Source: a virus
Taxonomy: Duplodnaviria; Caudoviricetes
Direction: 5' to 3' (one strand)
Virus record (IMG/VR): IMGVR_UViG_3300036768_000895
Coordinates: 1 to 39,062 of that record
Length of the DNA stretch: 39,062 nucleotides
A program made the position numbers and the translations under genes. The notes under the pieces are model-generated. The model was not told the origin of the DNA. It did not search any database and was given only the letters and a program-made list of their open reading frames with translations. Shown here piece after piece: positions 9,493-23,093 of this stretch (its first letter is position 1; every line of letters begins with the position of its first letter).

Positions 9493-10440
9493 ATGGCCAA
9501 AGATTTCCCGCAGCGGATACTGGCTCGCCCCTTTGGCTGGCATGACGGCAAGCTGATTGTGGCCAGGTCGTGCGCGGCCCCCGACGAAACGGGCAAGCGG
9601 TGGCTGGGAGTCATTGGCAGTGCCAGCGGACAGAGCGACAAGCCGATTGTGATCGGTACGGAGTGCGAGTTCCCGTCGCTGCTCCGCCAGCTCGGCCGCT
9701 GGGTATCGTGGCCGCACGGCCAGCGCCCGATCTACGCCATCGCCTGCTGCCAGCACGGGTCGAGCGCTGGATCGAGCGGGCCTTCGAGCGGTCCGAGTTC
9801 CGGACCCAGCAGCGGCCCCTCCAGCGGCCCCAGCAGCGGTCCCAGCAGCGGGCCATCGAGCGGGCCGAGTTCCGGCCCCTCCAGCGGTCCCAGCAGCGGG
9901 CCGTCGAGCGGGCCACGCGGCGGCTGCCGCCTCTATCCGTGGTGGTTCGTCACTGCTGGCGGGGCGCAAATCCTCTCGGACCCCGATGAGTGGACCGTGC
10001 GCTGGAAAACATCGCCGTTTGCCGGCGCGCAGCATGCCGCCGGCGACCGCTATATCCACTGCTGGGGCAGCTACAATCGCCGCTTCCGCATTACCGCTAC
10101 CGCAGACCTTACCACAGCGCATCACGGGTCGCTGGTGGTATACGTTGAAGTTTGCGGCAGCCCGCTAACGCCCGAAGACCCATACATGCTCTCGTTCGAT
10201 ACTTCGCCCGATCCGCCTCAGTGTCATTGGAGTTTTCTCGACACAGCGACGCGCGAAGGCGAAGTGAACACGCAGCAATGTGGTGCAGACGAAGAGCAGC
10301 ATTTGCCGCCGACCATTGAGGACTTCGAGTTCCCGCCGTCGATCCGCATCCATTGGGAGTATCACCTGCTGTTCGCGGGTCCCGAGTATTGCAGCCCGGA
10401 GAACGAAAGCCGATTGACCTTCACGTTTGAGTGGCTCTAA
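9493..10440 (+). CDS. Putative virion/receptor-binding protein with (SSGP)12 linker
   Basis: ATG 9493 just after the upstream stop; Cys-containing domains flank a Ser-Ser-Gly-Pro repeat. Confidence 0.6.
   Translation: MAKDFPQRILARPFGWHDGKLIVARSCAAPDETGKRWLGVIGSASGQSDKPIVIGTECEFPSLLRQLGRWVSWPHGQRPIYAIACCQHGSSAGSSGPSSGPSSGPSSGPSSGPSSGPSSGPSSGPSSGPSSGPSSGPSSGPRGGCRLYPWWFVTAGGAQILSDPDEWTVRWKTSPFAGAQHAAGDRYIHCWGSYNRRFRITATADLTTAHHGSLVVYVEVCGSPLTPEDPYMLSFDTSPDPPQCHWSFLDTATREGEVNTQQCGADEEQHLPPTIEDFEFPPSIRIHWEYHLLFAGPEYCSPENESRLTFTFEWL
9772..9915 (+). repeat. 12 x 12-nt coding tandem repeat (SSGP)
   Basis: 144 nt encoding SSGP twelve times with varied synonymous codons. Confidence 0.9.
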
Positions 10441-10443
10441 GAA

Positions 10444-13400
10444 ATGAGAAGGTGTTCCGAAGCGCACTGTGGCATGACGCCGGAGGAAATGGTGGCCCTG
10501 ATCGAGGCCGCACCGCCCGGCCCGTGGCCCGAAGGATGGCGCGGCTGGCCGTGCGTGTGCGAAGCGCATCGCATCATGTTCCGACGCGAAGCGCAGCGGG
10601 TCGCGGCGCTCGTCGATCCGCCGATGGACTGGCAGCAGCCGCGCGGCATCGTGACATGCGGCGGCGGCTTGAAATACTTCCCGGGCGTGTGGGTGCTGGC
10701 GCACGTGCTGCGCGACCTGGGGTGCACGCTGCCAATCCAAGTCTGGTATTTGGGCAGCGCGGAGATGGACCCGGGCATGGCGCGACTGTTGGAGCCGCTG
10801 GGCGTCGAGTGCGTGGACGCCTTCAAGGTCGCGGAGCAATACCCGGCCCGCATCTTGTGCGGTTTTGAGGTCAAAATCTACGCCACGCTGTTTTCGCCGT
10901 TCCAGGAGGTGCTGTTTCTGGACGCGGACAACCTGCCGAACCGCGACCCGTCGGACCTGTTTTCGTGGCCGCAATACCTGCGCACGGGCGCGGTATTCTG
11001 GCCCGATTATGCCTGCTGGAAGCTCAAGTCCGACGTGTGGCATATCTGGGGCATGGAAGACATCCTCGAAGACGTGATCGACGATACGGCCTTCGAGTCG
11101 GGGCAGTACCTGATCGACAAGCGCCGGGCCTGGCGCGAGCTGATGCTGAGCAAGTGGCTGGGCGATCATTCCGACTATGTTTTCGGCACGGTGTACGGCG
11201 ACAAGGAATGTTTTCACCTGGCCTGGCGACGGCTCGGGCGAGAATATGCCATGCCAAGATATGCGCCGGGCTGGGCGGGGCGGTGCTGCATTGTGCAGCA
11301 CGATTTCGATGGCAAGCCGATTTTTTTCCACCGCTGCCAGGACAAGTGGCGGCTGGATGGGCGCAATCGGCTAGAAGGACTGCCGCATGAGGACCGGGCC
11401 TTTGCGCTGCTCAAAGAGCTGCGGCAGAAGTGGTCGGGCGTCCCGTGGCGGAATAATCACCCGACGCCGCAGGAGCAGGAGGTGATCGCGCAGCTCCAGG
11501 GCAAGCGGTACATTTACCAGCGGGTCGGGCATGATCAGCGGGTGCTGGTGCTCGAAAAGGATCAGTGGATCACGGAAGGTTCGGCGGACTGTGAACGACG
11601 CTGGGACGTTCATATCGTGGACGGCGAGCCGGTGCTGACCATTTCGGCGTATGACGGGCCGACCTGCCACCTGCGCCGTGACGAAGTGGGCATTTGGCGC
11701 GGCCGATGGCTGCACCACGAGCGCATGCCGATTGTGCTGGCGCCGACTGACGTTTTCGGGACGTTGGCGTGGCTGCCCCCGCCCGACCCGGCCGCGCCAA
11801 TGACTGACGAGGAACGGGCCGTGTTTCAGTCGGTCGCGGGTCGGCGGCTGTTGTACGAGCGCGTGGGATACGACCAGCGCCCGATCAAGCTGGAGCCCGA
11901 CGGCACGATCAGCGAAGGGGCCGGCGGCATGGAACGCACCTGGCACGTCCGCATTGTCGATGGTGCGCCGGTGCTGACGATCACAGACGGCCTGCGTCCG
12001 ACGTGCCACCTGCGCCGTGGGGACGACGGCCGCTGGCGCGGCCAGTGGCTGCGGCATGAGCGGATGCCGATCCTGCTCAGTCCGATGGCGGACGACGGCC
12101 AGAGCGCATCATCGCCCCGGGAGGGCGAGAGCGCCCCATCGCCGCCCAGTGGTAACAGTGCGGAGTCGGCCGACGAGGAGGACGAGGACCCGGACGCAGA
12201 CGGGCGCGGCGACCTGGCCGCGCTGGTCACGGTCGCCGTCGTCAGTTTTCGCCGATTCGCCTGCCTGGTGGAGCTGCTGCGGTCGATTCGCGCCCACTAC
12301 CCGGACCTGCGCGTGATCGTGGCCGACCAGTCGGGGCCAGACGCCCAGACGGACGAGCGGGCGCAGTGGTGCCGCCGGCATCCGCAGGTGCAATGGATCG
12401 ACCTGCCCTACGACTGCGGACTGTCGGCTGCGCGCAACGCGGCCATCGCCCACGTGCGCACGCCGTACGTCTGGCTGATGGACGACGATTTCCGGGTTTT
12501 GCCATGCACGGACGCTGTGGCCGCGCTGCACCTGTTCCAGGAGGTGAGCGGGACCGAGATCGTCGCTGGTCCGCTGTACGACCTGGCCGCTGGCCGCATG
12601 ATCGACTGGGCGGCCATGCTCACCATCGAGCCCGGGACGCCGCCGGTCGTGAGCGCCAGCGCGCCCGGGCCGTGGCGGCGGTCGAAGCGAGGGGCGCTGT
12701 GGCGGCCCGTCGGCCGGTTCCTGAACTCGTTCATCGCGCGGACCCAGACGCTGCGGCGGGTGCCGTGGCGCCACGATCTGAAAATCCGCGGCGAGCATCG
12801 GGTGCACGTGGCCGACCTGGTGCGCCATCGCGTGCCCTGCATCGAAACGCCTGCCCTGACGCTGGCGCATCAAGCGCAGCGGCGCGGCGATGCGACCTAC
12901 CAGCAGATGCGCTCACGCCGCGACTGGTACGAAACGCCGCTGTATCGGTTCGCGGGCGATTGGAAGCTATCGGAGGACCCGGTGCCGCCTCCAGCCGTGG
13001 CGCATCCATGCCGCGGGGTCGTGGTGCTGACGCCTGGCCATACGGGCTCGCGTGTGGTGGCGCGTCTGCTTGATGCGCTGGGGTGGCGGATGCCGGAGCT
13101 GGACGTCGTGTTTGGCGAACCCGCCGACGTGCGCGCGGTCAATCAGCGCCTGCTGCGTGGCGAGCGCCTGCGAGGACAAGAGCTGCGCGCGCAGGTCGCG
13201 GCCTGGCCGCGGCCCTGGTGCATCAAGGACCCGCGGCTGTGCGAGACGCTCGACGCATGGCTGCCGGCGCTGGCCGATGATGCCCCGCTGCTCGTTGTCG
13301 TGGACCGCGACCTGAACGCCACCCGCGAAAGCTGGCGCCGTCGCGGCGAGGCATTGGAACGGCTTCAACGGCGGCTGGAGGGCGTCGGCTATCATTGGAC

Positions 13401-13512
13401 CTATTGGCCCTGGGAACGCCGCCGCGTGGCGTTTGAGGCCATCTGCGCGGCTTGGCAGCGTATTCCCGAGCCCGGGCGGGAAGGCGAGTCGATGAACAGT
13501 GGCCCCTCGTGA
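10444..13512 (+). CDS. Multidomain glycan-modifying enzyme: GT71/MNN2-like mannosyltransferase + 2 repeated domains + GT2 + sulfotransferase-like domain
   Basis: RGIV..GG, SPFQEVLFLDADN, GAVFWPDY, ESGQ, GDKE (Mannosyl_trans3-like); VTVAVVSF.R, IVADQS, GLSAARN, LMDDD (GT2); VVLTPGHTGS...WCIKDPRL (sulfotransferase-like). Confidence 0.8.
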   Translation: MRRCSEAHCGMTPEEMVALIEAAPPGPWPEGWRGWPCVCEAHRIMFRREAQRVAALVDPPMDWQQPRGIVTCGGGLKYFPGVWVLAHVLRDLGCTLPIQVWYLGSAEMDPGMARLLEPLGVECVDAFKVAEQYPARILCGFEVKIYATLFSPFQEVLFLDADNLPNRDPSDLFSWPQYLRTGAVFWPDYACWKLKSDVWHIWGMEDILEDVIDDTAFESGQYLIDKRRAWRELMLSKWLGDHSDYVFGTVYGDKECFHLAWRRLGREYAMPRYAPGWAGRCCIVQHDFDGKPIFFHRCQDKWRLDGRNRLEGLPHEDRAFALLKELRQKWSGVPWRNNHPTPQEQEVIAQLQGKRYIYQRVGHDQRVLVLEKDQWITEGSADCERRWDVHIVDGEPVLTISAYDGPTCHLRRDEVGIWRGRWLHHERMPIVLAPTDVFGTLAWLPPPDPAAPMTDEERAVFQSVAGRRLLYERVGYDQRPIKLEPDGTISEGAGGMERTWHVRIVDGAPVLTITDGLRPTCHLRRGDDGRWRGQWLRHERMPILLSPMADDGQSASSPREGESAPSPPSGNSAESADEEDEDPDADGRGDLAALVTVAVVSFRRFACLVELLRSIRAHYPDLRVIVADQSGPDAQTDERAQWCRRHPQVQWIDLPYDCGLSAARNAAIAHVRTPYVWLMDDDFRVLPCTDAVAALHLFQEVSGTEIVAGPLYDLAAGRMIDWAAMLTIEPGTPPVVSASAPGPWRRSKRGALWRPVGRFLNSFIARTQTLRRVPWRHDLKIRGEHRVHVADLVRHRVPCIETPALTLAHQAQRRGDATYQQMRSRRDWYETPLYRFAGDWKLSEDPVPPPAVAHPCRGVVVLTPGHTGSRVVARLLDALGWRMPELDVVFGEPADVRAVNQRLLRGERLRGQELRAQVAAWPRPWCIKDPRLCETLDAWLPALADDAPLLVVVDRDLNATRESWRRRGEALERLQRRLEGVGYHWTYWPWERRRVAFEAICAAWQRIPEPGREGESMNSGPS

Positions 13513-13519
13513 GGGAGTT

Positions 13520-14335
13520 ATGGACGACGCGCACCGAACCGACCGACAATCACTGGAGCAATTCGCGGCCGCGCGTGCCAAGGCCGTCGGCTACGGCGAC
13601 GGCGTGCTGTGCCGCGTCCTGGGCGATCTGTTGGCCATCGTGGACCCTGCGGACCTGACCGTCGGGCCGCGGCTGGCGATGGACGGGTATTGGGAGGCGT
13701 GGGTGACAGCCGCCCTGCTGCGGCACCTGCGCCCCGGGATGGCGTGCGTGGACGTAGGGGCGCACGTCGGATACTACACGCTGGCCATGGCGCGGGCCGT
13801 CGGCCCCGAAGGCCGCGTGCTGGCGGTCGAGCCGTACCCGGTCAGCGCGCATCGTCTGCGACAGAACCTGGCCCTGAACGGTTTGTCGTGGGTCGAGACG
13901 GCCCAGGTCGCCGCGTCAGACGCCGCAGGAACCGCCACCCTGCGCGTGCCGCGCTGCAACGTGGGCGGGGCATCGTTGCACCCTGCCGAAAGGCCGGACT
14001 ACGCCGAAGACTGCGAAGTCCCCACAATCGCGCTGGACGACCTGCTGGGAGAGTGGACCCAGCTCGATCTCGTGAAAGTCGATGTCGAGGGCTGGGAGGG
14101 CAAAGTCTGGCAAGGCACCGAGCGCCTGCGGCAGCGGTTCCCGGGGGCCGTGCTGGTCGTTGAGCTACACGTCGCCCTGGACCGGCGCGTGGTGGCGGAA
14201 TTGCTGCCGGAGATCGAGCGCTGCGGCTACGTGCTGCGGCACGTGCGGTACGACGGGACGGTTGCGCCGATCACCCCCGATGCGATCTTGTCCCGCCCGG
14301 AGAGCGGATGCACCCTGTGGCTGACGCGACGCTGA
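13520..14335 (+). CDS. FkbM-family SAM-dependent methyltransferase
   Basis: VDVGAHVGYYT, VLAVEP, LVKVDVEGWE motifs; RBS GAGGGAG before ATG 13520. Confidence 0.9.
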   Translation: MDDAHRTDRQSLEQFAAARAKAVGYGDGVLCRVLGDLLAIVDPADLTVGPRLAMDGYWEAWVTAALLRHLRPGMACVDVGAHVGYYTLAMARAVGPEGRVLAVEPYPVSAHRLRQNLALNGLSWVETAQVAASDAAGTATLRVPRCNVGGASLHPAERPDYAEDCEVPTIALDDLLGEWTQLDLVKVDVEGWEGKVWQGTERLRQRFPGAVLVVELHVALDRRVVAELLPEIERCGYVLRHVRYDGTVAPITPDAILSRPESGCTLWLTRR

Positions 14336-14723: not shown

Positions 14724-14740
14724 CCGCCAAGGCCGCGGCC

Positions 14741-14938
14741 AGTCCCATTTTCCGAAGTGTCCACCCTCCAGGGCCGCGGATTTTTTTCGAGATTTTTTCC
14801 CCAAGGCCGGCCGCCGCTATTGACGAGTATTTGCCACGCGGTATAATAAAGGCGTCATCGGTGAGGGACCGATGACGGCAAGCCGCGGCCGACGCGGCGA
14901 CAATCAGCGGGCCGGTTAGACCGGCCGGGGAGGTTCCG
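14741..14938 (+). promoter_or_regulatory. Cassette leader copy 1 (conserved box, T-tracts, sigma70 promoter, 3 hairpins, RBS)
   Basis: TTGACG 14820-14825, 16-nt spacer, TATAAT 14842-14847; GGAGG before ATG 14939. Confidence 0.9.
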
Positions 14939-15211
14939 ATGGCGTTTACGACTGGCGAACTGCGGAAAGCTGTCAAGCGGGCGCGGCAAGAAATTGGGGC
15001 TCAGCCGCTGGTGGTGGCCAAAGGATCGTTGTCGATCCACCTGCTGCGGCGGCTGAAGCGCAACGCCAAGGGCGACGGCGACGGGTGGCGCGAGCTCGGC
15101 TACGCCGTCTGGTCGTGCGTGTCCCAGTCGTGGGTCTTTGGCGGGTGGGACTCGCCGGTGACGCTCCAGGAGGCCGCGCGTTACGTGTCGGAGGCCAGCT
15201 ACTACGCCTGA
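14939..15211 (+). CDS. Cassette 1 hypothetical protein (90 aa)
   Basis: Exactly fills the space between the leader RBS and the pseudoknot element. Confidence 0.75.
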   Translation: MAFTTGELRKAVKRARQEIGAQPLVVAKGSLSIHLLRRLKRNAKGDGDGWRELGYAVWSCVSQSWVFGGWDSPVTLQEAARYVSEASYYA

Positions 15212-15219
15212 TGGCGGCG

Positions 15220-15292
15220 GCCGCCGCCGTGTGCCCCCGAGCGGCGGCGGCGAGTGCTCTATCGGGGGCGTTTCCGGCGCACGCAGCGCCGG
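15220..15292 (+). repeat. Post-gene pseudoknot element copy 1 (+ hairpin)
   Basis: GCCGCCGCCG/CGGCGGCGGC stem; loop GCCCCCGA complementary to TCGGGGGC 15262-15269; CCGGCGC/GCGCCGG hairpin. Confidence 0.85.
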
Positions 15293-15315
15293 GCATTGGG
15301 GCCTGGACGGCGACC

Positions 15316-15512
15316 AGTCCCATTTTCCCAAGTGTCCACCTTCCCGGGGCCGCGGATTTTTTTCGAGATTTTTTCCCCAAGGTCAGCCGCGGCTCTTGAC
15401 GAGTATTTATCCTGCGGTATAATTAAGGCGTCATCGGTGAGGGACCGATGGCGGCGGCCGCGGCCGACGCGGCGACAATCAGCGGGCCGGCAAGGCCGGC
15501 CGGGAGGTTACG
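15316..15512 (+). promoter_or_regulatory. Cassette leader copy 2
   Basis: TTGACG 15396-15401, TATAAT 15418-15423, same hairpins and RBS. Confidence 0.9.
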
Positions 15513-15905
15513 ATGAGCGGCGACGAACTGATTCGGAAGGTTTGCGACTTGGCGGTTGCCGGGAAGGGCTCCCCCAAGGACGGGGGCATCACGATGCGGG
15601 GCGACGGGCCGCAGTTTCCGCGGGGCCTGGTCCATACGCGGTACGAGCATATCGTCCACCGCCGCGTTTGGCGGGATGGACAATGGGTGCCGATTTCGAC
15701 GCGCAAGCGCAATCGCTTTGACCGCGTCCATGCGGGGGAGCTGGTCATCGAGTGGGTCGATAACTGGGCGATCCAGACGGCCTATTTGATTCTGGGCTCG
15801 TTCACCCCGGGCTTCCGCAAGTTGGAAGTCCGGGACCATGGTGATCTGCTGTCGATCTATTTGCCGGACGGGCGGGTCGTCGTCCGACCGGGGCCGCGGG
15901 CGTAA
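15513..15905 (+). CDS. VWR-GE-LPDG family paralog 1 (130 aa)
   Basis: RRVWRDGQW...AGELV...TAYL...LPDGRVVVRP. Confidence 0.8.
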   Translation: MSGDELIRKVCDLAVAGKGSPKDGGITMRGDGPQFPRGLVHTRYEHIVHRRVWRDGQWVPISTRKRNRFDRVHAGELVIEWVDNWAIQTAYLILGSFTPGFRKLEVRDHGDLLSIYLPDGRVVVRPGPRA

Positions 15906-15912
15906 CTAGTAC

Positions 15913-15985
15913 GCCGCCGCCGTGTGCCCCCGAGCGGCGGCGGCGAGTGCTCTATCGGGGGCGCTTCCGGCGCGCGGAGCGCCGG
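15913..15985 (+). repeat. Pseudoknot element copy 2 (+ hairpin)
   Basis: Same stem and loop; TCGGGGGC at 15955-15962. Confidence 0.85.
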
Positions 15986-15988
15986 GTG

Positions 15989-16152
15989 ACGGCTGGTCCC
16001 CTTTTGCGAGTGCAGCACGCCCACGGACGACCGCGTGGAGGCGCCAACGCGACCGTGGGGGAGGTCCGGGAGGGGAGGAGCTCGGGGCGGGAATTGACCC
16101 GCAGTGGGGCGGCGGTGCCCAGCATCGCTGCCCCACGGGCCGGCTGTTTTTT
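15989..16152 (+). ncRNA. Candidate structured RNA, copy A
   Basis: Homologous to 20188-20355 with compensatory changes; closing stem followed by a T-tract. Confidence 0.55.
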
Positions 16153-16160
16153 CATAGACC

Positions 16161-16358
16161 AGTCCCATTTTCCCAAGTGTCCACCTTCCGGGTCCGCGGA
16201 TTTTTTTCCAAGATTTTTCGCCCAAGGTCGGCCTCGGCTCTTGACGACTATTTGTCCTGCCGTATAATAAAGGCGTCATCGGTGAGGGACCGATGGCGGC
16301 GGCCGCGGCCGACGCGGCGAAAGATCAGCGGGCCGGCAGGGCCGGCCGGGAGGTTGCG
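16161..16358 (+). promoter_or_regulatory. Cassette leader copy 3
   Basis: TTGACG 16241-16246, TATAAT 16263-16268. Confidence 0.9.
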
Positions 16359-16703
16359 ATGAACCGGGTACTGACAAGCGAGAATGCTGAGGCGTGCCGC
16401 GCGGCCGCGAACGGGACGCCATTTGGGCGCCCGCACTGGGAGGCGACGGCGGGCAACGACCGCTGGCGGGGAAGCTGGTATTTGCTAGTGTGGCGCGACG
16501 GCCGCTGGCAGCGCTTCGAGCATTCCCTGGACCGCGTCTGGCCGGGCGAGGTCATGCTTTACGTCGAGCAGCAGCAGCTCGCGATGGCCTACGTCGCCCT
16601 GCGGGACGCCGTGGTGCAAATTGAGTTCTCCCAGAGCGGCCCGGTCGTCCTGCAATTGCCCGACGGAACAGCGCTGACGCGGCCCCTGCCTGCTCTGGAC
16701 TAG
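16359..16703 (+). CDS. VWR-GE-LPDG family paralog 2 (114 aa)
   Basis: LVWRDGRW...WPGEVM...MAYV...LPDGTALTRP; ATG follows GGAGG. Confidence 0.8.
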   Translation: MNRVLTSENAEACRAAANGTPFGRPHWEATAGNDRWRGSWYLLVWRDGRWQRFEHSLDRVWPGEVMLYVEQQQLAMAYVALRDAVVQIEFSQSGPVVLQLPDGTALTRPLPALD

Positions 16704-16712
16704 TCTTCCCCT

Positions 16713-16763
16713 GCCGACGCCGTGTGCCCCCGAGCGGCGGCGGCAGCGCTGAGCTATCGGGGG
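16713..16763 (+). repeat. Pseudoknot element copy 3 (subtype with GCGCTGAGCTA linker)
   Basis: Stem with one mismatch, invariant loop, TCGGGGG at 16757-16763. Confidence 0.8.
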
Positions 16764-16793
16764 ATTTTCTTTTGCACACAAGGCCGCGCGCTT

Positions 16794-16835
16794 GTCGCGG
16801 CTGGGGACTGCCGCCCCCAGCCGCGACCGTTTCTT
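16794..16835 (+). terminator. Intrinsic terminator-like hairpin, copy 1
   Basis: GTCGCGGCTGGGG/CCCCAGCCGCGAC 13-bp stem then TTTCTT; repeated at 17461. Confidence 0.6.
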
Positions 16836-16840
16836 GCGCG

Positions 16841-17033
16841 CCCCATTTTCCCAAGTGTCCACCTTCCCGGGCCGCGGTTTTTTCGACATTTTTCGACCCA
16901 TGGCGGCCGCGGCTCTTGACTAGTATTTATCCTGCGGTATAATTTGGGCGTCATCGGTGAGGGACCGATGGCGGCGGCCGCGGCCGACGCGGCGACAATC
17001 AGCGGGCCGGCAGGGCCGGCCGGGGAGGGTGAG
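16841..17033 (+). promoter_or_regulatory. Cassette leader copy 4
   Basis: TTGACT 16916-16921, TATAAT 16938-16943. Confidence 0.9.
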
Positions 17034-17429
17034 ATGAACGAGACAGCGACGGCGGGAATCCCGGAAGACGTGCTGGTGGCGTGCGAGATTGCGGGGGCCG
17101 ACGCGGCGCCGGTGGGCGACCAAGTCATCATCACAGGCTGCGGGCACCTGAAATACGGGCGCGTTGGCGAATCCCCCACGCGCTGGTATCGGTACGTGTG
17201 GCGCGACGGCCGCTGGGTAAAGGTCGCCCGCACGCTGCGGCAGGCGGTCGGGCCGGTGCGCCCGGGCGAAGTGCTGGTCGATGTAGTCGAGCGCCGGCCG
17301 ATTTCGGCCGGTTGTCTGGTGACCGCGAAGGGCTTCGTTCAGCTCTTCGTGCGTGAGGCCAGCCCCAATACGATCTACGTGTACCTGCCGGACGGGCAGA
17401 TTCTCATTCGTCCGAACCCGCGGAAGTAA
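17034..17429 (+). CDS. VWR-GE-LPDG family paralog 3 (131 aa)
   Basis: YVWRDGRW...RPGEVL...LPDGQILIRP. Confidence 0.8.
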   Translation: MNETATAGIPEDVLVACEIAGADAAPVGDQVIITGCGHLKYGRVGESPTRWYRYVWRDGRWVKVARTLRQAVGPVRPGEVLVDVVERRPISAGCLVTAKGFVQLFVREASPNTIYVYLPDGQILIRPNPRK

Positions 17430-17460
17430 TTCCGGGTGCGGCCGCACCGCGGGCCGTCTG

Positions 17461-17499
17461 GTCGCGGCTGGGGACTGCCGCCCCCAGCCGCGATTCTTT
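17461..17499 (+). terminator. Intrinsic terminator-like hairpin, copy 2
   Basis: Same sequence as the 16794 hairpin; lies between convergent genes. Confidence 0.6.
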
Positions 17500-17519
17500 G
17501 CGCGATGCGCCCCCAGTCC

Positions 17520-17744
17520 CTAGGACACCAAATCGGCGGGCTCGCACCCGATGGCGGCAGCGACCGACGCGAGCCTAGAAAGGCTGGGCAGCGTCCGGCC
17601 GCGCTCGAAGGCGGACCATGCCGCGGCCGTGATCCCGGCACGCGCGGCCGCTTCCTGGAGTGTGAGCCCGGCGGCCAGGCGGCGTTCGCGCAGGCGCTCA
17701 CCCAGTATCTGGTGCAGGCGTGATGGGTATTTGGGCGGCGGCAC
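17520..17744 (-). CDS. Xre/Cro-family HTH regulator (candidate repressor)
   Basis: GERLRERRLAAGLTLQEAAARAGI...WSAFERGRTLPSL..L..VA.A.G; GTG start inferred from the promoter position. Confidence 0.85.
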   Translation of the reverse strand: MPPPKYPSRLHQILGERLRERRLAAGLTLQEAAARAGITAAAWSAFERGRTLPSLSRLASVAAAIGCEPADLVS

Positions 17745-17771
17745 CTGGCGCCCGCCGACGCCCAGTCTCGG

Positions 17772-17800
17772 ATTATGCGGTCGAAAGTGGTGCTGTGCAA
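17772..17800 (-). promoter_or_regulatory. Sigma70-like promoter for the HTH gene
   Basis: Minus strand TTGCAC-17 nt-CATAAT. Confidence 0.65.
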
Positions 17801-17883
17801 TCATCTTACGCTGCATTGTAGCGCCCGCCCATCGGAACGTGGACCGGTTGCCCCAGCCTGCCCTAGGCTGAGGTGGCAAAGTG

Positions 17884-17912
17884 CGCAACTTCCGACTGCT
17901 GCGGAAGTTGCG
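17884..17912 (-). terminator. Hairpin downstream of tRNA fragment
   Basis: CGCAACTTCCG/CGGAAGTTGCG perfect 11-bp stem. Confidence 0.55.
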
Positions 17913-17921
17913 ATTCGCCAA

Positions 17922-17970
17922 GGTGGAGACGACCGGGATCGAACCGGCAACCCCAGCCTTGCAAAGGCTG
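17922..17970 (-). other. tRNA-Ala(TGC) 3' fragment, probable attP core
   Basis: Minus strand CAGCC TTTGCAA GGCTG (anticodon arm), GCCGG TTCGATC CCGGT (T arm), CGTCTCC-A-CC acceptor 3' strand with U70; no 5' acceptor strand or complete D arm. Confidence 0.8.
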
Positions 17971-17980
17971 TGGCGCTCGT

Positions 17981-18176
17981 GTCCCATTTCCCAAGTGTCC
18001 ATCTTCCTAGGTCCCCGGATTTTTTCGGCAATTTTCGCCCAAGGTCGGCCGAGTCTCTTGACGACTATTTATCCGGCGGTATAATAAAGGCGTCATCGGT
18101 GAGGGACCGATGGCGGCGGCCGCGGCCGACGCGGCGAAAGATCAGCGGGCCGGCAGCGCCGGCCGGGGAGGTTCCG
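17981..18176 (+). promoter_or_regulatory. Cassette leader copy 5
   Basis: TTGACG 18058-18063, TATAAT 18080-18085. Confidence 0.9.
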
Positions 18177-18545
18177 ATGGTCGAGATTATCCGGCAATTG
18201 TGCGACGTGGCGGTGCGTGAGGGCGACCCGGTGGGCGGGTCGATCTACATGCTGGCCTGGAGCGAGTGCCCGGGCGAAGATTGGCAGCGCCGGGTATGGC
18301 GCCATCGGCGGTGGCGCCAGTTCGCCTTCGGCGACGATCCGATGGGCTGGCTTCGTGCGGGCGAAGTCGTGGTCGAGTTCGTCGCTGATCTCCCGATCAA
18401 GACGGCCTATCTGGTCACGGGCGAAGTGGCCAACGGCTACATCCGTCTGGAGGCGCGGCAGACGGAGTCGGGGACGGTCAAAATCGACCTGCCGGACGGG
18501 CGCGTGATTGAGCGCCCCGACCCGCGGGACTGGTGGCGGGACTGA
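18177..18545 (+). CDS. VWR-GE-LPDG family paralog 4 (122 aa)
   Basis: RRVWRHRRW...RAGEVV...TAYLV...LPDGRVIERP. Confidence 0.8.
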   Translation: MVEIIRQLCDVAVREGDPVGGSIYMLAWSECPGEDWQRRVWRHRRWRQFAFGDDPMGWLRAGEVVVEFVADLPIKTAYLVTGEVANGYIRLEARQTESGTVKIDLPDGRVIERPDPRDWWRD

Positions 18546-18572
18546 TCGCCCCGGCGGCAATGACCGCCAACG

Positions 18573-18645
18573 GCCGCCGCCGTGTGCCCCCGAGCGGCGG
18601 CGGCCAGTGCTCTGTCGGGGGCGCTTCCGGCGCGCGGAGCGCCGG
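18573..18645 (+). repeat. Pseudoknot element copy 4 (+ hairpin)
   Basis: TCGGGGGC at 18615-18622. Confidence 0.85.
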
Positions 18646-18696
18646 GCCTCGTCACGTAATCACAGCGGGCCGGCAGGGCCGGCCGGGGAGGGAGCA

Positions 18697-19059
18697 ATGA
18701 ACGAGATCAGGTTTGACCTATCATCGGTGCCTTTCGCGTGGGTGGTGCATGCCGCGCGCCTGCGTGGGCGCGTGCTGGCGTGCGAAGACGTCAGCGACCC
18801 GGGCGCCGAGCTTGTGCTGCTGCGGCGGTTCGACCCGCCGATCAAGATCAAGCGCAGCGGGTCGGGCCGGGTGAACGAACAGTTTGCCCGGCGGCTGCGC
18901 GTCAACGTAATCGTTGAGGGTATGGGCGACGGCCAGGTCGTCGTCCGTGCCAGCCCGCGCAACCTGCGGGCCATCCAGGCCACCCTGCGCGACAAGGCCG
19001 AGTGGCAGCAGTTTCTCGAATCGTCGCGGCAGCCGCGGCAGCCGGGCCAGACGTGCTGA
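18697..19059 (+). CDS. Cassette hypothetical protein (120 aa), promoterless short leader
   Basis: Preceded by GTCACGTAATCACAGCG, the leader's third hairpin and an RBS. Confidence 0.7.
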   Translation: MNEIRFDLSSVPFAWVVHAARLRGRVLACEDVSDPGAELVLLRRFDPPIKIKRSGSGRVNEQFARRLRVNVIVEGMGDGQVVVRASPRNLRAIQATLRDKAEWQQFLESSRQPRQPGQTC

Positions 19060-19067
19060 CGGTAGGG

Positions 19068-19141
19068 GCCGCCGCCGTGTGCCCCCGAGCGGCGGCGGTT
19101 CAGCGGGCCATCGGGGGCGTTTCCGGCGCACGCAGCGCCGG
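19068..19141 (+). repeat. Pseudoknot element copy 5 (+ hairpin)
   Basis: Different linker but TCGGGGGC retained at 19111-19118. Confidence 0.85.
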
Positions 19142-19183
19142 GCCTTGTCACGTAATCACAGCGGGCCGGCCGGGGAGGTTTCG

Positions 19184-19537
19184 ATGGTCGAGGTTATCCG
19201 TGAGCTGTGCGACATCGCCTGGACCGAAGGCGATCCTGTCTGCGCGTCGGTGCCCATGCTTGGATTTGTGGACGTGACCACAACGTACGAACGCCGGGTA
19301 TGGCGCCGTGGGCGGTGGCGGGAGTTCGCCTCCGGCGATAACCCAGTCGGACGAGTGCGCGCCGGTGAAATCGTCATCGAGTACACGGAGGGCGCCCCCG
19401 TGACTACCGCGTATCTGATCACGGGCGAGGTCGCTTGTGGCTACATCCGTCTGGAGGCGCGGCAGACGGAGTCGGGGACGGTCAAAATCGACCTGCCGGA
19501 CGGGCGCGTGATTGAGCGCCCCGACCCGCGGGACTGA
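19184..19537 (+). CDS. VWR-GE-LPDG family paralog 5 (117 aa)
   Basis: RRVWRRGRW...RAGEIV...TAYLI...LPDGRVIERP; close paralog of the 18177 gene. Confidence 0.8.
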   Translation: MVEVIRELCDIAWTEGDPVCASVPMLGFVDVTTTYERRVWRRGRWREFASGDNPVGRVRAGEIVIEYTEGAPVTTAYLITGEVACGYIRLEARQTESGTVKIDLPDGRVIERPDPRD

Positions 19538-19545
19538 TCGCCGCG

Positions 19546-19618
19546 GCCGCCGCCGTGTGCCCCCGAGCGGCGGCGGCCAGTGTTCTATCGGGGGCGGTTC
19601 CGGCGCACGCAGCGCCGG
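19546..19618 (+). repeat. Pseudoknot element copy 6 (+ hairpin)
   Basis: TCGGGGGC at 19588-19595. Confidence 0.85.
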
Positions 19619-19641
19619 GCATTGGGGCCTGGACGGCGACC

Positions 19642-19838
19642 AGTCCCATTTTCCCAAGTGTCCACCTTCCCGGGGCCGCGGATTTTTTTCGAGATTTTTT
19701 CCCCAAGGTCGGCCGCGGCTATTGACGACTATTTATCCGGCGGTATAATTAAGGCGTCATCGGTGAGGGACCGATGGCGGTGGCCGCGGCCGACGCGGCG
19801 GAAATCAGCGGGCCGGGAAGACCGGCCGGGAGGGTCCG
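19642..19838 (+). promoter_or_regulatory. Cassette leader copy 6
   Basis: TTGACG 19722-19727, TATAAT 19744-19749. Confidence 0.9.
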
Positions 19839-20099
19839 ATGAACGACAATCGCACGCTTGATCAGGTCCTGTATGCTCGGGGGAGCGCCCTGCCGAAGGG
19901 TTGGCGCTGGGGGGCGCAGTTTTCCATCCGCGGCGGAGCAATCGCGGGGCACTACGCTATCCGTGAAAGCGATGGGTTTTCGGTCATGGTCGCCGAGTCC
20001 GGCGAATCGGACGCCCCGAGCCCGGCGGCCGCGATTCGGGCCGCCATCGCCGACGGCGTGATTCCGCGGGCGCAGCGGCGGGCCCGGGCGCAGCAGTAA
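19839..20099 (+). CDS. Cassette hypothetical protein (86 aa)
   Basis: Fills the leader-to-pseudoknot slot. Confidence 0.75.
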   Translation: MNDNRTLDQVLYARGSALPKGWRWGAQFSIRGGAIAGHYAIRESDGFSVMVAESGESDAPSPAAAIRAAIADGVIPRAQRRARAQQ

Positions 20100-20109
20100 G
20101 CGGGCCGCG

Positions 20110-20182
20110 GCCGCCGCCGTGTGCCCCCGAGCGGCGGCGGCCAATGCTTGATCGGGGGCGCTTCCGGCGCGCGGAGCGCCGG
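20110..20182 (+). repeat. Pseudoknot element copy 7 (+ hairpin)
   Basis: TCGGGGGC at 20152-20159. Confidence 0.85.
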
Positions 20183-20187
20183 GCAAA

Positions 20188-20355
20188 GGTCGGTCCCCCT
20201 TCCTGCGAGTGCAGCAAGCCTGCGGACGACCACGCTGAGGCGCCAGCGTGACCGTGGGTGAGGTCCCGGAGAGGCCGGAGCCGGGGCGCGGGAATCGACC
20301 CGCAGTGGGGCGGCGGCGTGCGCGTTGCCTAACCCCTAGGGGCCGACCGTTTTTT
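20188..20355 (+). ncRNA. Candidate structured RNA, copy B
   Basis: Homolog of 15989-16152; GGTCGGTCCC/GGGGCCGACC closing stem then T6. Confidence 0.55.
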
Positions 20356-20370
20356 CTAGGAGCTACGACG

Positions 20371-20856
20371 ATGAAAGAGGATCGCAAATGCCCTACATGC
20401 GGGGCGCAGTGGACCGTGGAGATCGAACGTGTCCGGGGCGATTCCGTGCCGAGCCCGGACGAAATGGGCACGCGCATCCAGTCGTGGACGGTCGAGCGCG
20501 TGGTCGATGGCACGCCGTGCGATTGTGCCCGGCGTGCCGAAGAGGATGCGGCGCGCCGGGCCAAAGAGTCGCGCGAAGCGGCTGCCCAGCGCCAACGCGA
20601 TGCTGCCGCCCTGTATCGCGAGCTGATGAGCTATGGCGGTCCGCTGCCAGAGGACACGCCGATGCGGCTGCCCGACTACGACTGGGGCGGCTGGAGCGAC
20701 CCGCGGCCGCTCGGGCGGTTTTCGTCGCGCTTCTGGACGTGGCATGGCGATCTGTACTACGTATCGCCCAGCGAGCAAACCGCGGTCAAATTGGACCGCG
20801 GCGCGAAGCTCATTGACGGCGAGCTGCGGGTGTCCGACCCGTGGCTGCTGATGTAG
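20371..20856 (+). CDS. Hypothetical protein with CxxC...CxC (possible Zn ribbon), 161 aa
   Basis: AGGAG RBS, MKEDRKCPTCG...PCDC. Confidence 0.7.
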   Translation: MKEDRKCPTCGAQWTVEIERVRGDSVPSPDEMGTRIQSWTVERVVDGTPCDCARRAEEDAARRAKESREAAAQRQRDAAALYRELMSYGGPLPEDTPMRLPDYDWGGWSDPRPLGRFSSRFWTWHGDLYYVSPSEQTAVKLDRGAKLIDGELRVSDPWLLM

Positions 20857-20864
20857 TCTTCCCC

Positions 20865-20917
20865 CGCCTTCGCCGTGTGCCCCCGAGCGGCGATGGCGGC
20901 GCTGAGCTATCGGGGGC
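20865..20917 (+). repeat. Pseudoknot element copy 8
   Basis: Altered stem CGCC-T-TCGCCG/CGGCGA-T-GGCG still pairs; TCGGGGGC at 20910-20917. Confidence 0.8.
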
Positions 20918-20957
20918 GCTGTGGGCGGGCGCACCGCCCAGAGGATTGCCAGCGCAC

Positions 20958-21010
20958 GTGCTGGCTGAGCTGCTGTCGCTAGTGCCCCAGGACGCCTTGC
21001 ACCGCACGCG
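20958..21010 (+). pseudogene. Remnant of the C-terminus of a 22329-23093-like gene
   Basis: VLAELLSLVPQDAL matches LLAEILALVPQDAL at ~22932-22973. Confidence 0.6.
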
Positions 21011-21035
21011 CGGCCGGCGTCGGGGCTTTGATATT

Positions 21036-21542
21036 ATGTGGCAAGAAAGCTTCATTAAGAACGACACGGCAGTTCTTTCGCGGGCTGATGTTCAGCACCA
21101 GGCGAACGCCGAGTTCCTGCGTCGGGCTGCCGCTATGGCTGTCAGCCGTAAACACCCGTCGGGGGATGCGCATTCGATGTATTCGATTCGCGCTGCGTTC
21201 AAACATTACAGCCTCCGCGACAACTGCCATGAACACTGGGCGCGGGCGGTGTGGCGTCCGCACTGCGGGCGCTGGCGGTGGCAGTATTTCGGCCATCGCT
21301 CATTGGCCGTCAACAAGCGGAAAGATTACGTCCTGGGCGTCGTCTGGCCCGGCGAACTCATAGCACAGTATGAGTTCACGGGCCTTCTTACGGGCCCAGC
21401 AACTGTCACAGCCGCGCTTCTTGTGCTTGAAAACGGTCTTCTGTGCCCGTTGCGATTTATCTCGCGACGGCCCGAGTTGCGTGTTCAGTTGCCGGGAGGG
21501 AGAGTTCTTGTCCTGCCGGCCGTCCGCACGAAATGGAGCTAG
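21036..21542 (+). CDS. VWR-GE-LPDG family paralog 6, divergent (start uncertain)
   Basis: RAVWRPHCGRW...WPGELI...AALLV...LPGGRVLVLP. Confidence 0.65.
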   Translation: MWQESFIKNDTAVLSRADVQHQANAEFLRRAAAMAVSRKHPSGDAHSMYSIRAAFKHYSLRDNCHEHWARAVWRPHCGRWRWQYFGHRSLAVNKRKDYVLGVVWPGELIAQYEFTGLLTGPATVTAALLVLENGLLCPLRFISRRPELRVQLPGGRVLVLPAVRTKWS

Positions 21543-21544
21543 GC

Positions 21545-22192
21545 ATGAAACACCTGACAACACGAAACGCGGCTGAAAAGTATCTGCGGGAGCTGCTCGG
21601 CCCGTATCATCGGGCCATTGAGGCGCTGCTCAAAGAAACAGCACCCGACCGTCACGCGCGGCGCGTGATCGCCGCACGGGAAGCGGCGAGGGCGTGGGTT
21701 ATCGCCCATCACGGGCAAGGCTTGTCGCAGCCGCTTAGCGATGAGGTGTTAGCGGCCTACACCAACGCTGTTTTGATCGCCGAGTGCTTTGGCGTCGGCG
21801 GGCGGGACGGCGTATCCGGGGCCAGCACCACGCGGCATCCTGCTTTCGTCGCGCTCGGCCGCGGCAGGAAGCACGCTGCCGACGGCGCCGCGTGGGACGC
21901 CGCCATCCGCGATGCCGTCGATTCGTCCCCTGGCCATTTTCGGCCCGGCGGCAGTGGCACCACGTCGCTGTTTTTCGAGGCAGGGCCTATCCTGATTTGC
22001 CCCGGAGCGGCGATTATCCCGCATGCCTGGCAGCGCACAATCGCGCGCGAAGGCTTGCGCCGATCTGTCGGCCTTGACCCGTGGTTCCCGGAGCTGGTCG
22101 GCTACGTGCTGGCCAACCAAGACAATTGCGCGGATTGGGCGCGCGTGGTTGAATACCTTGAGCTCAGCACCGGTGCCACCGGTGGCAAATAA
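21545..22192 (+). CDS. Hypothetical protein (215 aa)
   Basis: ATG 2 nt after the upstream stop; ends at pseudoknot copy 9. Confidence 0.65.
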   Translation: MKHLTTRNAAEKYLRELLGPYHRAIEALLKETAPDRHARRVIAAREAARAWVIAHHGQGLSQPLSDEVLAAYTNAVLIAECFGVGGRDGVSGASTTRHPAFVALGRGRKHAADGAAWDAAIRDAVDSSPGHFRPGGSGTTSLFFEAGPILICPGAAIIPHAWQRTIAREGLRRSVGLDPWFPELVGYVLANQDNCADWARVVEYLELSTGATGGK

Positions 22193-22240
22193 CCGCCGTG
22201 TGCCCCCGAGCGGCGGCGGTAGCGCTGAGCTATCGGGGGC
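22192..22240 (+). repeat. Pseudoknot element copy 9
   Basis: Shortened stem, invariant loop, TCGGGGGC at 22233-22240. Confidence 0.8.
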
Positions 22241-22328
22241 GCTGTGGGCGGGCGGACCGCCCAGACGATCACCAGCCCAGGTGCTGGCGGCGCGCCGGCT
22301 TGGCCGAGACGACCGGAGGAGTGTTGCC

Positions 22329-23093
22329 ATGTGTGCAGTCGTTAAAGTGACCGTTCAGAGGACGGCGGACTGGGTGCGTGCGCGGCGGATCGAAACCGGC
22401 GCGAATGTGCCCGAACGGATCGAGGTTGCGGTGCCCGTGGATCAGCTCCCGCGCGAAGTGCGGGAGCTGCTGATCGAGGCGGGCGGCGGGAAGTATCCAT
22501 CGGATTTCGCGGGCGATTTTCGGCAAGACTTCCGGTGGATGTATCGCTCCGATTTGCGGTACGGGCGCGTGCCGATCATCCTGGACGTTGACCAGCCGAC
22601 GCCCGCGGAGATTGCCGCGGCGATTCTGGCTGCCGACGCGGAGCGCCGGCGGATGAAGAGTGAGGCGGAGGAAAAGGCCCGCCAGATTGCCCAGCGAGAA
22701 CGGGCCCGTGCCGAAGAGTGGGCGCGGCTGCCGCTACAGCAGCGGGCCAGCGCGGCGGGCGTGTGCGTCGCCCGCGACCCGCAGACTGGCGCCATGAGCG
22801 CTTGCGGTGCGCAAGTGTACGATGTGTCGGCGCTGCGGAAGTACGTTCCCGAGGCGCTAAACGAAGCGATGCGCGAAGTCGAGCGGCTGCGCGAGATTGA
22901 GCGCGGCAAAGAAGCGATCCAGCATCGCGCGCTGCTGGCTGAGATACTGGCGCTGGTGCCGCAGGACGCGCTGCGGCACGCGCTGAAACTGGCGGCCGCC
23001 AGCGGAATCGGCGGCAAGCCGGCGCCCATCGAGGACGTGCGGCGGCAAGTCCGAAAGGCGTGTGAAGCGGGCGGCGTCGAGGTGACGCTGTAG
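22329..23093 (+). CDS. Hypothetical protein (254 aa) with coiled-coil-like segment
   Basis: GGAGGAG RBS before ATG 22329. Confidence 0.7.
   Translation: MCAVVKVTVQRTADWVRARRIETGANVPERIEVAVPVDQLPREVRELLIEAGGGKYPSDFAGDFRQDFRWMYRSDLRYGRVPIILDVDQPTPAEIAAAILAADAERRRMKSEAEEKARQIAQRERARAEEWARLPLQQRASAAGVCVARDPQTGAMSACGAQVYDVSALRKYVPEALNEAMREVERLREIERGKEAIQHRALLAEILALVPQDALRHALKLAAASGIGGKPAPIEDVRRQVRKACEAGGVEVTL

Follow-up and report, generated by a model that had tools for sequence, protein, structure and literature searches.

What is the role of an RNA element that recurs nine times behind the genes of a single phage? This question is raised by a stretch of 39,062 bases, hereafter the window, which comprises the entire IMG/VR virus record IMGVR_UViG_3300036768_000895 (Duplodnaviria; Caudoviricetes). 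A preliminary description of its sequence had pointed to nine copies of an H-type pseudoknot placed just after stop codons, in which a GC stem (P1) encloses an invariant loop, part of which pairs with bases further downstream (P2). From the analyses presented here we conclude that the repeat belongs to an uncatalogued predicted RNA pseudoknot family located between phage genes, which is supported by covariation and looks restricted to viruses.

All nine copies were recovered: the 12-base loop TGTGCCCCCGAG is present on the plus strand as exact copies at 15230, 15923, 16723, 18583, 19078, 19556, 20120, 20876 and 22199, and under a first-order Markov null 0.02 exact copies were obtained on average, with no run of 200 exceeding 1. 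In every copy a GC stem flanks the loop and TCGGGGG(C) follows 10-12 nucleotides (nt) past the 10-base-pair (bp) stem register. The claim that both pairings persist despite a remodelled stem in copy 8 is thus borne out as far as the presence of the stem and of TCGGGGG(C) is concerned, but P1 is flawed in three copies (an internal mismatch in copies 3 and 8, only 6 bp in copy 9) and P2 of copy 3 forms seven of its eight pairs. The described placement was likewise found throughout, since the repeat starts 0-26 nt past a same-strand stop codon in 9/9 copies, with the stem beginning 6-10 nt past the stop in most of them; the copies are spaced 478-1860 nt apart with open reading frames (ORFs) in between.

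The CCGGCGC/GCGCCGG hairpin that had been reported to follow six copies is present as stated. In copies 8 and 9 its position is taken by another 7-bp hairpin, TGGGCGG/CCGCCCA, which had been missed, so that eight of the nine copies are followed by a hairpin. The statement that there is no U-tract applies to eight copies but not to copy 3, where P2 continues directly into the U-tract TTTTCTTTTG. According to crude energies, the knot lies below the best nested fold in six copies, within 0.5 kcal of it in one and above it in copies 3 and 9. Since P2 is essentially invariant among the nine copies, the window alone provides no P2 covariation, which has to be supplied by homologs. Two aspects had escaped the preliminary description, namely the place of the repeat as a module within promoter-leader-ORF cassettes and the existence of relatives in other phages.

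Members in other phages and the evidence for pairing

An exact scan returned close relatives only, and relaxed scans of viral and metagenome contigs gave further members. The scan relaxed to P2 alone yielded 120 loci from 25 of the 64 parts of the collection, mostly chance matches, together with the first two distant members. A descriptor demanding an in-register P1 retained 59 distinct instances. Nine of them lie in the window, close relatives contribute 16, and the remaining 34 come from other phage-like contigs. Four of these 34 belong to type A (3-base loop, long P1) and 30 to type B (4-base loop, P1 of 4-5 bp), the latter representing 25 lineages once five close kin are dropped. With an RNA model, sites were found in ten other viral records (one site in eight records, in one of them at both contig ends, two in another and three in the last), and 21 terminase-related loci contained no clear member except a close relative.

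The family is predicted to form an H-type pseudoknot of about 35-50 bases, in which P1 covaries freely, the UGU(G) loop is conserved and P2 has the form GCYCCCGA/UCGGGRGC. Across 36 aligned members, 98.4% of 432 cells are paired and 48 two-sided changes occur; none of 500 shuffles reached such a value, and slid controls gave 32-49%. Two-sided changes affect all four P1 pairs and two of the eight P2 pairs, and eleven more sequences change C-G to U-G in P2. Direct covariation of P2 is thin, with two-sided changes in three sequences and five pairs that never vary. Because the members were selected for P1 and the search patterns fixed much of P2, unbiased scans in which one part was left free weigh more. 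If the TC was left free, it preceded GGGRGC in 20/20 distinct matches. If GAG and P1 were left free, an in-register P1 of at least 3 bp was present in 12/12 matches with GAG or GAA vs 0/7 without. If the 5' loop was left free, UGUG was found in 11/15 distinct matches, of which 10/11 had a P1 of at least 4 bp vs 0/4 of the others. All three scans thus recover the motif and, together with the changes in both stems, support the H-type pseudoknot originally suggested.

The first U of the loop pairs with the G before the 3' strand of P1 in 36/36 members (35 U.G, one U-A), a closure that would leave a loop of 2-3 bases and coaxial stems. A sense-strand RNA is favoured by 21 wobble cells as compared to 7 unpaired cells. 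Conservation resides in the 3' half of the element, i.e. in P2 and the short loop, and not in the 5'-facing P1 or in the last loop (5-18 nt). The downstream hairpin of type A covaries as well, with two-sided changes at five of its seven pairs among 19 related copies.

A comparison with Rfam 15, which had been proposed as a check, detected only a tRNA in the window and nothing on the repeats at E-values up to 10, and in 33 member loci only tRNAs and no ribozyme nearby. A GTDB scan, performed with the C-variant pattern only, gave 12 matches of which none was canonical (11 lacked an in-register P1, one had 3 bp with a non-canonical loop). When two members were compared by BLAST with 50,697 phage records, one had no match and the other weak partial matches only; two of these, in a gap of a Streptomyces phage and in an unannotated record, lack the loop and the P2 partner. 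The motif is not described in the literature found, including the available passages of PMC5737381 and bioRxiv 10.64898/2026.09.22.753630, and gave no match in the searched part of the supplements of the viral structured-RNA catalogue PMC10690425, although it may be among the candidates listed there.

Distant members occupy same-strand gaps after a capsid, portal, terminase or SSB gene, and the genes after them include head-tail adaptors, a RecA-like gene, a DNA polymerase and tRNAs. According to heuristic gene calls judged by eye, a same-strand ORF ends at most 140 nt upstream in 20/25 type-B lineages; of the other five, three lie near contig ends, one has the ORF at 184 nt and one is overlapped by an ORF. 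No close downstream gene is present in three lineages (L204, L235, L236), and L178, a close kin of L204, faces a convergent gene. A flanking hairpin is not supported for type B, where z is below -1.5 in 5/25 lineages upstream and in 4/25 downstream, and the downstream structure, at a mean z of -0.22, is not significant. In a phage without BLAST similarity to the window (G001:C1:22767-24679; L219, L220), three type-A knots follow small genes, each with a downstream hairpin and a further structured stretch.

What the repeat may do

Of the roles listed in the preliminary description (exonuclease block, processing site, self-cleaving RNA or protein decoy), we tentatively favour the first, as a possible rather than a probable role and in a 3'-facing form: the repeat would be an intercistronic barrier by which the upstream message is protected, and it might serve as a pause site as well. 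In this model P1, which has 4-12 bp and is probably closed by the U.G pair, would be stacked on P2 (8 bp), and the GU(G) loop of 2-3 nt would form base triples in the P2 major groove that brace the junction end. Such triples would explain why the loop and the junction-side P2 pairs are fixed and why P1 and the last loop are free. Once a long early transcript is cut, paused or ended downstream, 3'-to-5' exonucleases would stall at the triple-braced P2, in this phage aided by the following hairpin, and each small cassette gene would thereby keep a stable message. Where a U-tract follows, as in copy 3 and in a small number of homologs, the stem may act as a terminator in addition, and as a by-product the identical repeats would permit the loss or gain of cassettes by recombination. 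The barrier is preferred because all window copies and most others follow a gene, because several members have no gene after them (for copies 1, 2, 3 and 6, there is no downstream ORF before the next promoter) and because the conserved part is the 3' half.

However, several observations weigh against a barrier. Most type-B phages hold a single copy, located in varied places, with no consistent high-demand gene upstream. In 22/25 type-B lineages an ORF or tRNA starts at most 80 nt downstream of the knot, often nearer than the upstream stop. Promoter-like hexamers, judged by eye, are located just upstream of the element in L237 and L215, the last part of the upstream ORF extends into the element in L240, and two distant members may be promoter-proximal. 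For copies 3 and 9 the crude energy estimate favours an extended P2 hairpin over the knot, and the GU(G) base triples are only inferred. Moreover, a plain hairpin can block 3' exonucleases and would suffice, and the near-invariance of the sequence among unrelated phages is instead a hint of chemistry or of specific recognition. Our confidence is limited for this reason, since fixed bases of this kind may just as well indicate a surface for binding or catalysis.

If the latter is taken further, the invariant GU(G)/P2 surface might itself be an active site or binding surface, and the element either a new minimal class of self-cleaving RNA or a phage ligand for a conserved host machine (RNA polymerase, Rho, the ribosome or a defence protein); we consider this rather doubtful. 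Similarly doubtful is the extension of this idea, according to which the ninefold copies behind strong early promoters might represent an RNA-based takeover or anti-defence device, beside the RNA with a kissing-type loop described below.

Alternatively, the repeat might be bound by a conserved protein or machine. It could be a translational operator or enhancer similar to the T4 gene 32 pseudoknot, or a decoy RNA that is cut from abundant transcripts and titrates a host defence or RNA-metabolism protein, and would be in line with loop and P2 bases that are fixed over unrelated contigs and with the apparent restriction of the family to viruses. Type-B knots end 8-60 nt before a start codon or tRNA and have no significant structure after them, comparable to the gene 32 operator as outlined in parts of PMC3014915. 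A decoy would profit from the six promoters of the array, which match 11/12 consensus bases, as nine copies would raise its dose. We nevertheless regard such a site as unlikely. No relation exists among the genes downstream of it (head-tail adaptor, RecA-like, DNA polymerase, tRNA), and in L181 the knot is located behind rather than in front of the SSB gene, upstream of a RecA-like gene. There is also no shared candidate for the binding protein: a paralogous ORF family of the cassettes, without a clear fold match, precedes only four of the nine knots and has one member without a knot, and thus the knot is not its private site.

The position 0-26 nt after stop codons, where ribosomes leave, could also indicate transcription control, either as a pause or partial terminator with P2 in the exit channel or as a roadblock for Rho. 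A U-tract directly after P2 is found in copy 3 and in L204, and at least 6 T occur in the next 12 nt in 5/25 type-B lineages. Against this, eight of the nine window copies lack a U-tract, copies 4, 5, 8 and 9 lie between genes without their own promoter, which makes strong termination unlikely, and the C-richness upstream is modest (C exceeds G in 21/34). Overall, we judge such control to be quite improbable.

Still harder to sustain is the idea that polycistronic phage RNA is divided at the element, either by self-cleavage or at a processing signal for an endonuclease. The small, compact element with invariant loop bases occurs at intergenic sense positions in both gene-order contexts, and tRNAs follow it closely in two phages, with 4 nt between the knot and a tRNA-Asn gene in the first (L237:1423-1531, minus strand) and 57 nt between the knot and a six-tRNA cluster in the second (L199:83-241). 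Self-cleavage is, however, not reflected in any Rfam ribozyme match, neither on the repeats nor near the member loci, and no flanking base is conserved where the cut would fall.

The probability of a 5'-to-3' exonuclease block, by which an xrRNA-like element would guard the downstream gene against RNase J, is very low in our estimation. The knot with its following hairpin resembles the coremin layout, as far as the latter is presented in PMC10321173, a downstream gene is close in the 22 type-B lineages mentioned above, and a flavivirus xrRNA stops RNase J1 according to part of PMC5760640. In type B, however, the 5'-facing P1 is variable and comprises just 4-5 bp, and flanking hairpins are not significant. 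Ordinary frameshift pseudoknots do not stall Xrn1, as reported in a section of PMC10321173. In addition, the coremin loop and spacer consensus is absent, and the units of four window copies end without a downstream gene.

An effect on ribosomes at the stop codon, i.e. readthrough or insulation from re-initiation, is hardly credible, although the stem lies 6-10 nt past the stop in most window copies and retroviral readthrough knots have a similar spacer, since the stop-to-loop gap ranges from 6 to 37 nt, all three frames and all three stop codons are used, several extensions soon hit a second stop and type-B knots lie 30-140 nt from the stop, such variable frames and gaps making readthrough a weak reading.

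Regardless of its role, the family adds to the known repertoire an RNA motif with a minimum size of about 35 nt that has covariation support, seems confined to viruses and has no Rfam entry. If the repeat caps messages as favoured here, it would show how a phage tunes gene dosage in long transcripts and would provide a portable means of stabilising mRNAs; in the case of host-factor binding or self-cleavage, it would represent a new RNA device.

The cassette array and its genome

The early region from 14.8 to 23.1 kb consists of cassettes, in which a sigma-70 promoter is followed by a three-hairpin leader, a small orphan ORF and the repeat (Table 1). Six promoters match 11/12 sigma-70 consensus bases, and 7 such sites were found vs 1.1 in shuffles. 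Each of these promoters is contained in one of six repeats of about 200 nt (14726-14938, 15301-15512, 16146-16358, 16824-17033, 17980-18176 and 19627-19838), which comprise conserved upstream blocks, the near-consensus promoter and the leader up to the ribosome-binding site. The upstream blocks are possible repressor operators, and compensatory changes were observed in the first leader hairpin of L191.

None of the twelve cassette ORFs had a match in Pfam or PADLOC, and one had a weak PHROG match to a family of unknown function. Six of them (15513, 16359, 17034, 18177, 19184 and 21036) form the paralogous family mentioned above, with 114-168 amino acids and the motifs VWR..W, GE and LPDG. This family occurs in related contigs only, and its 18 homologs are all named "hypothetical protein". 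A confident beta-rich model (pLDDT 81) had no Foldseek match at E <= 0.001 and a best VIA Z of 3.6, and no fold was assigned.

Close relatives vary in cassette content, as seen from differences in L001 and L193. In L002, a single knot combines the 5' flank of copy 8 with the 3' flank of copy 9 and the two intervening genes are missing, the cassette junctions being located inside the knot repeat and within the promoter repeat.

Table 1 Predicted features of the cassette array of the window, ordered by position.
Feature	Position	Strand	Remarks
Promoter 1 (sigma-70-type, 11/12) and three-hairpin leader	14820..14938	+	
Twelve small-to-medium orphan ORFs	14939..23093	+	starts: 14939, 15513, 16359, 17034, 18177, 18697, 19184, 19839, 20371, 21036, 21545, 22329
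Pseudoknot copy 1	15220..15269	+	P1 10 bp, P2 8 bp; 8 nt past stop of ORF 14939-15211
7-bp hairpin of copy 1	15274..15292	+	
Promoter 2 and leader	15396..15512	+	
Pseudoknot copy 2	15913..15962	+	
7-bp hairpin of copy 2	15967..15985	+	
~165-nt multibranch structured RNA	15987..16152	+	U-tract at end; palindromic GGCGCC loop 16038-16046
Promoter 3 and leader	16241..16358	+	
Pseudoknot copy 3	16713..16764	+	P1 A.G mismatch; P2 7/8; U-tract directly after, no hairpin
Intrinsic-terminator-like hairpin, downstream of copy 3	16794..16827	+	
Promoter 4 and leader	16916..17033	+	ORF 17034-17429 without pseudoknot after it; terminator-like hairpin 17461-17493
ORF with helix-turn-helix (repressor-like) domain	17520..18002	-	true start probably later than that of longest frame
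tRNA-Ala(UGC), 3' part	17922..17984	-	likely attP core
Promoter 5 and leader	18058..18176	+	
Pseudoknot copy 4	18573..18622	+	
7-bp hairpin of copy 4	18627..18645	+	
Pseudoknot copy 5	19068..19118	+	
7-bp hairpin of copy 5	19123..19141	+	
Pseudoknot copy 6	19546..19595	+	
7-bp hairpin of copy 6	19600..19618	+	
Promoter 6 and leader	19722..19838	+	
Pseudoknot copy 7	20110..20159	+	
7-bp hairpin of copy 7	20164..20182	+	
Second multibranch structured RNA	20185..20355	+	U-tract at end; palindromic loop 20237-20245
Pseudoknot copy 8	20866..20917	+	P1 remodelled
7-bp hairpin of copy 8	20922..20940	+	compensatory variant
Pseudoknot copy 9	22193..22240	+	P1 6 bp; directly after TAA
7-bp hairpin of copy 9	22245..22263	+	compensatory variant

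Copies 2 and 7 lead into a second structured RNA of about 165 nt with a terminal U-tract. This RNA, which has a basal closing stem, is also present in L001 (two copies), L002 and L185, and 12 of its 61 predicted pairs change on both sides among six copies; no match to it was found in Rfam. One of its loops contains a palindrome flanked by purines, which reads GGCGCC in five copies but GGUACC in L185, a double change by which the self-complementarity is kept. The loop is a candidate kissing site, and it resembles the dimerisation loop of HIV-1.

The terminal 127 bases of the record are identical at both ends, and its genes include a terminase, a Mu-type portal, an integrase, RusA and a DNA methylase, from which we infer that the window is a complete temperate phage genome. 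The tRNA-Ala fragment and the neighbouring helix-turn-helix gene fit an attachment site and a repressor. Both are located on the minus strand in the middle of the cassette array (17520-17984), so that integration at the likely attP would split the array; the corresponding stretch of L001 is without the tRNA fragment. Just upstream of the array, at 10444-14335, a 1022-amino-acid protein with two glycosyltransferase domains and an FkbM-type methyltransferase are encoded, which points to a possible glycosylation of the virion or surface. In-frame low-complexity repeats are found in likely structural genes at 9763-9930 and 2687-2996 (12-nt units of the Ser-Ser-Gly-Pro type and proline-rich units).

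Comparison with known systems

Some known elements were considered as candidates and rejected. Known small ribozymes have a third helix or a nested P3/L3, which the two-helix fold lacks; it leaves no room for a nested P3/L3, and no Rfam match was obtained for hammerhead, twister, pistol, hatchet or HDV-like ribozymes. A pistol-like reading, in which the linker pairs with bases past the hairpin, fits copies 1 and 6 only, and in an HDV-like reading P3 finds no room. For an intrinsic terminator, a U-tract directly after the stem is not the rule (1/9 window copies), and for a readthrough pseudoknot there is neither a fixed spacer nor an open, conserved extension frame.

The preliminary description had drawn a comparison with type III antitoxins (ToxI, AntiQ, CptI, phage pseudo-ToxI), which are likewise H-type pseudoknots of similar size with several copies per element. 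This comparison fails. In the type III layout, according to the portion of PMC5086642 that was available, head-to-tail repeats are followed by a terminator and the toxin gene, whereas the copies of the window are GC-rich, separated by genes rather than arranged head-to-tail, and without an Rfam match. Neither Pfam nor PADLOC gave a toxin match on the cassette ORFs or on the other ORFs scanned. From this we conclude that the repeat is not a type III antitoxin.

Based on excerpts of PMC10321173 and PMC10520033, coremin xrRNAs (xrRNA-C, xrRNA-WCC) share with the window subtype a small knot that is followed by a hairpin at an intergenic or post-stop position. Unlike these, the repeat has a 12-13-nt loop and an 8-bp P2, and neither a 4-bp hairpin with a YGAD/YGNNAD loop nor a CUAC spacer; the following hairpin is absent from most distant members, and the contigs are phage-like DNA. 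Judged by this consensus, the repeat is not a coremin motif.

The operator of gene 32 in T4 and T2, as described in parts of PMC3014915, is also an H-type knot of phages with coaxial stems and, as in type B, an unstructured ribosome-binding region after it. In contrast to the operator, the present element is not tied to one gene, follows the SSB gene where the two are adjacent and is repeated after stop codons in the window. An operator of this type was rejected, since the placement upstream of an SSB gene was not found (L181) and the other downstream genes are unrelated.

REP elements and terminator hairpins are intercistronic or 3'-terminal stabilising stem-loops of bacterial and phage mRNAs. 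Like them, the repeat lies on the same strand just after stop codons and presents a strong GC helix to 3' exonucleases; it differs from them in its pseudoknot topology, in bases that are nearly invariant across unrelated phages and in mostly lacking a U-tract.

Finally, PeSL (promoter-early stem-loop) cassettes of T4-type phages were reportedly described by Arbiol in 2010. In both systems a repeated early promoter and an RNA structure bracket small orphan genes, and relatives gain or lose cassettes at the repeats. As documented in the accessible part of Comeau 2014 (PMC4122927), relatives carrying PeSL elements differ by whole cassettes with junctions inside the repeats. The terminator hairpin of PeSL is replaced here by a pseudoknot with a fixed loop and mostly no U-tract, the knot is also found without a promoter and, in other phages, as a single copy, and the 39-kb temperate genome with its integrase and Mu-type portal is not T4-like. 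In our assessment, the array works like PeSL at the level of the cassettes, and PeSL-like cassette shuffling is thus seen outside the T4-type phages.

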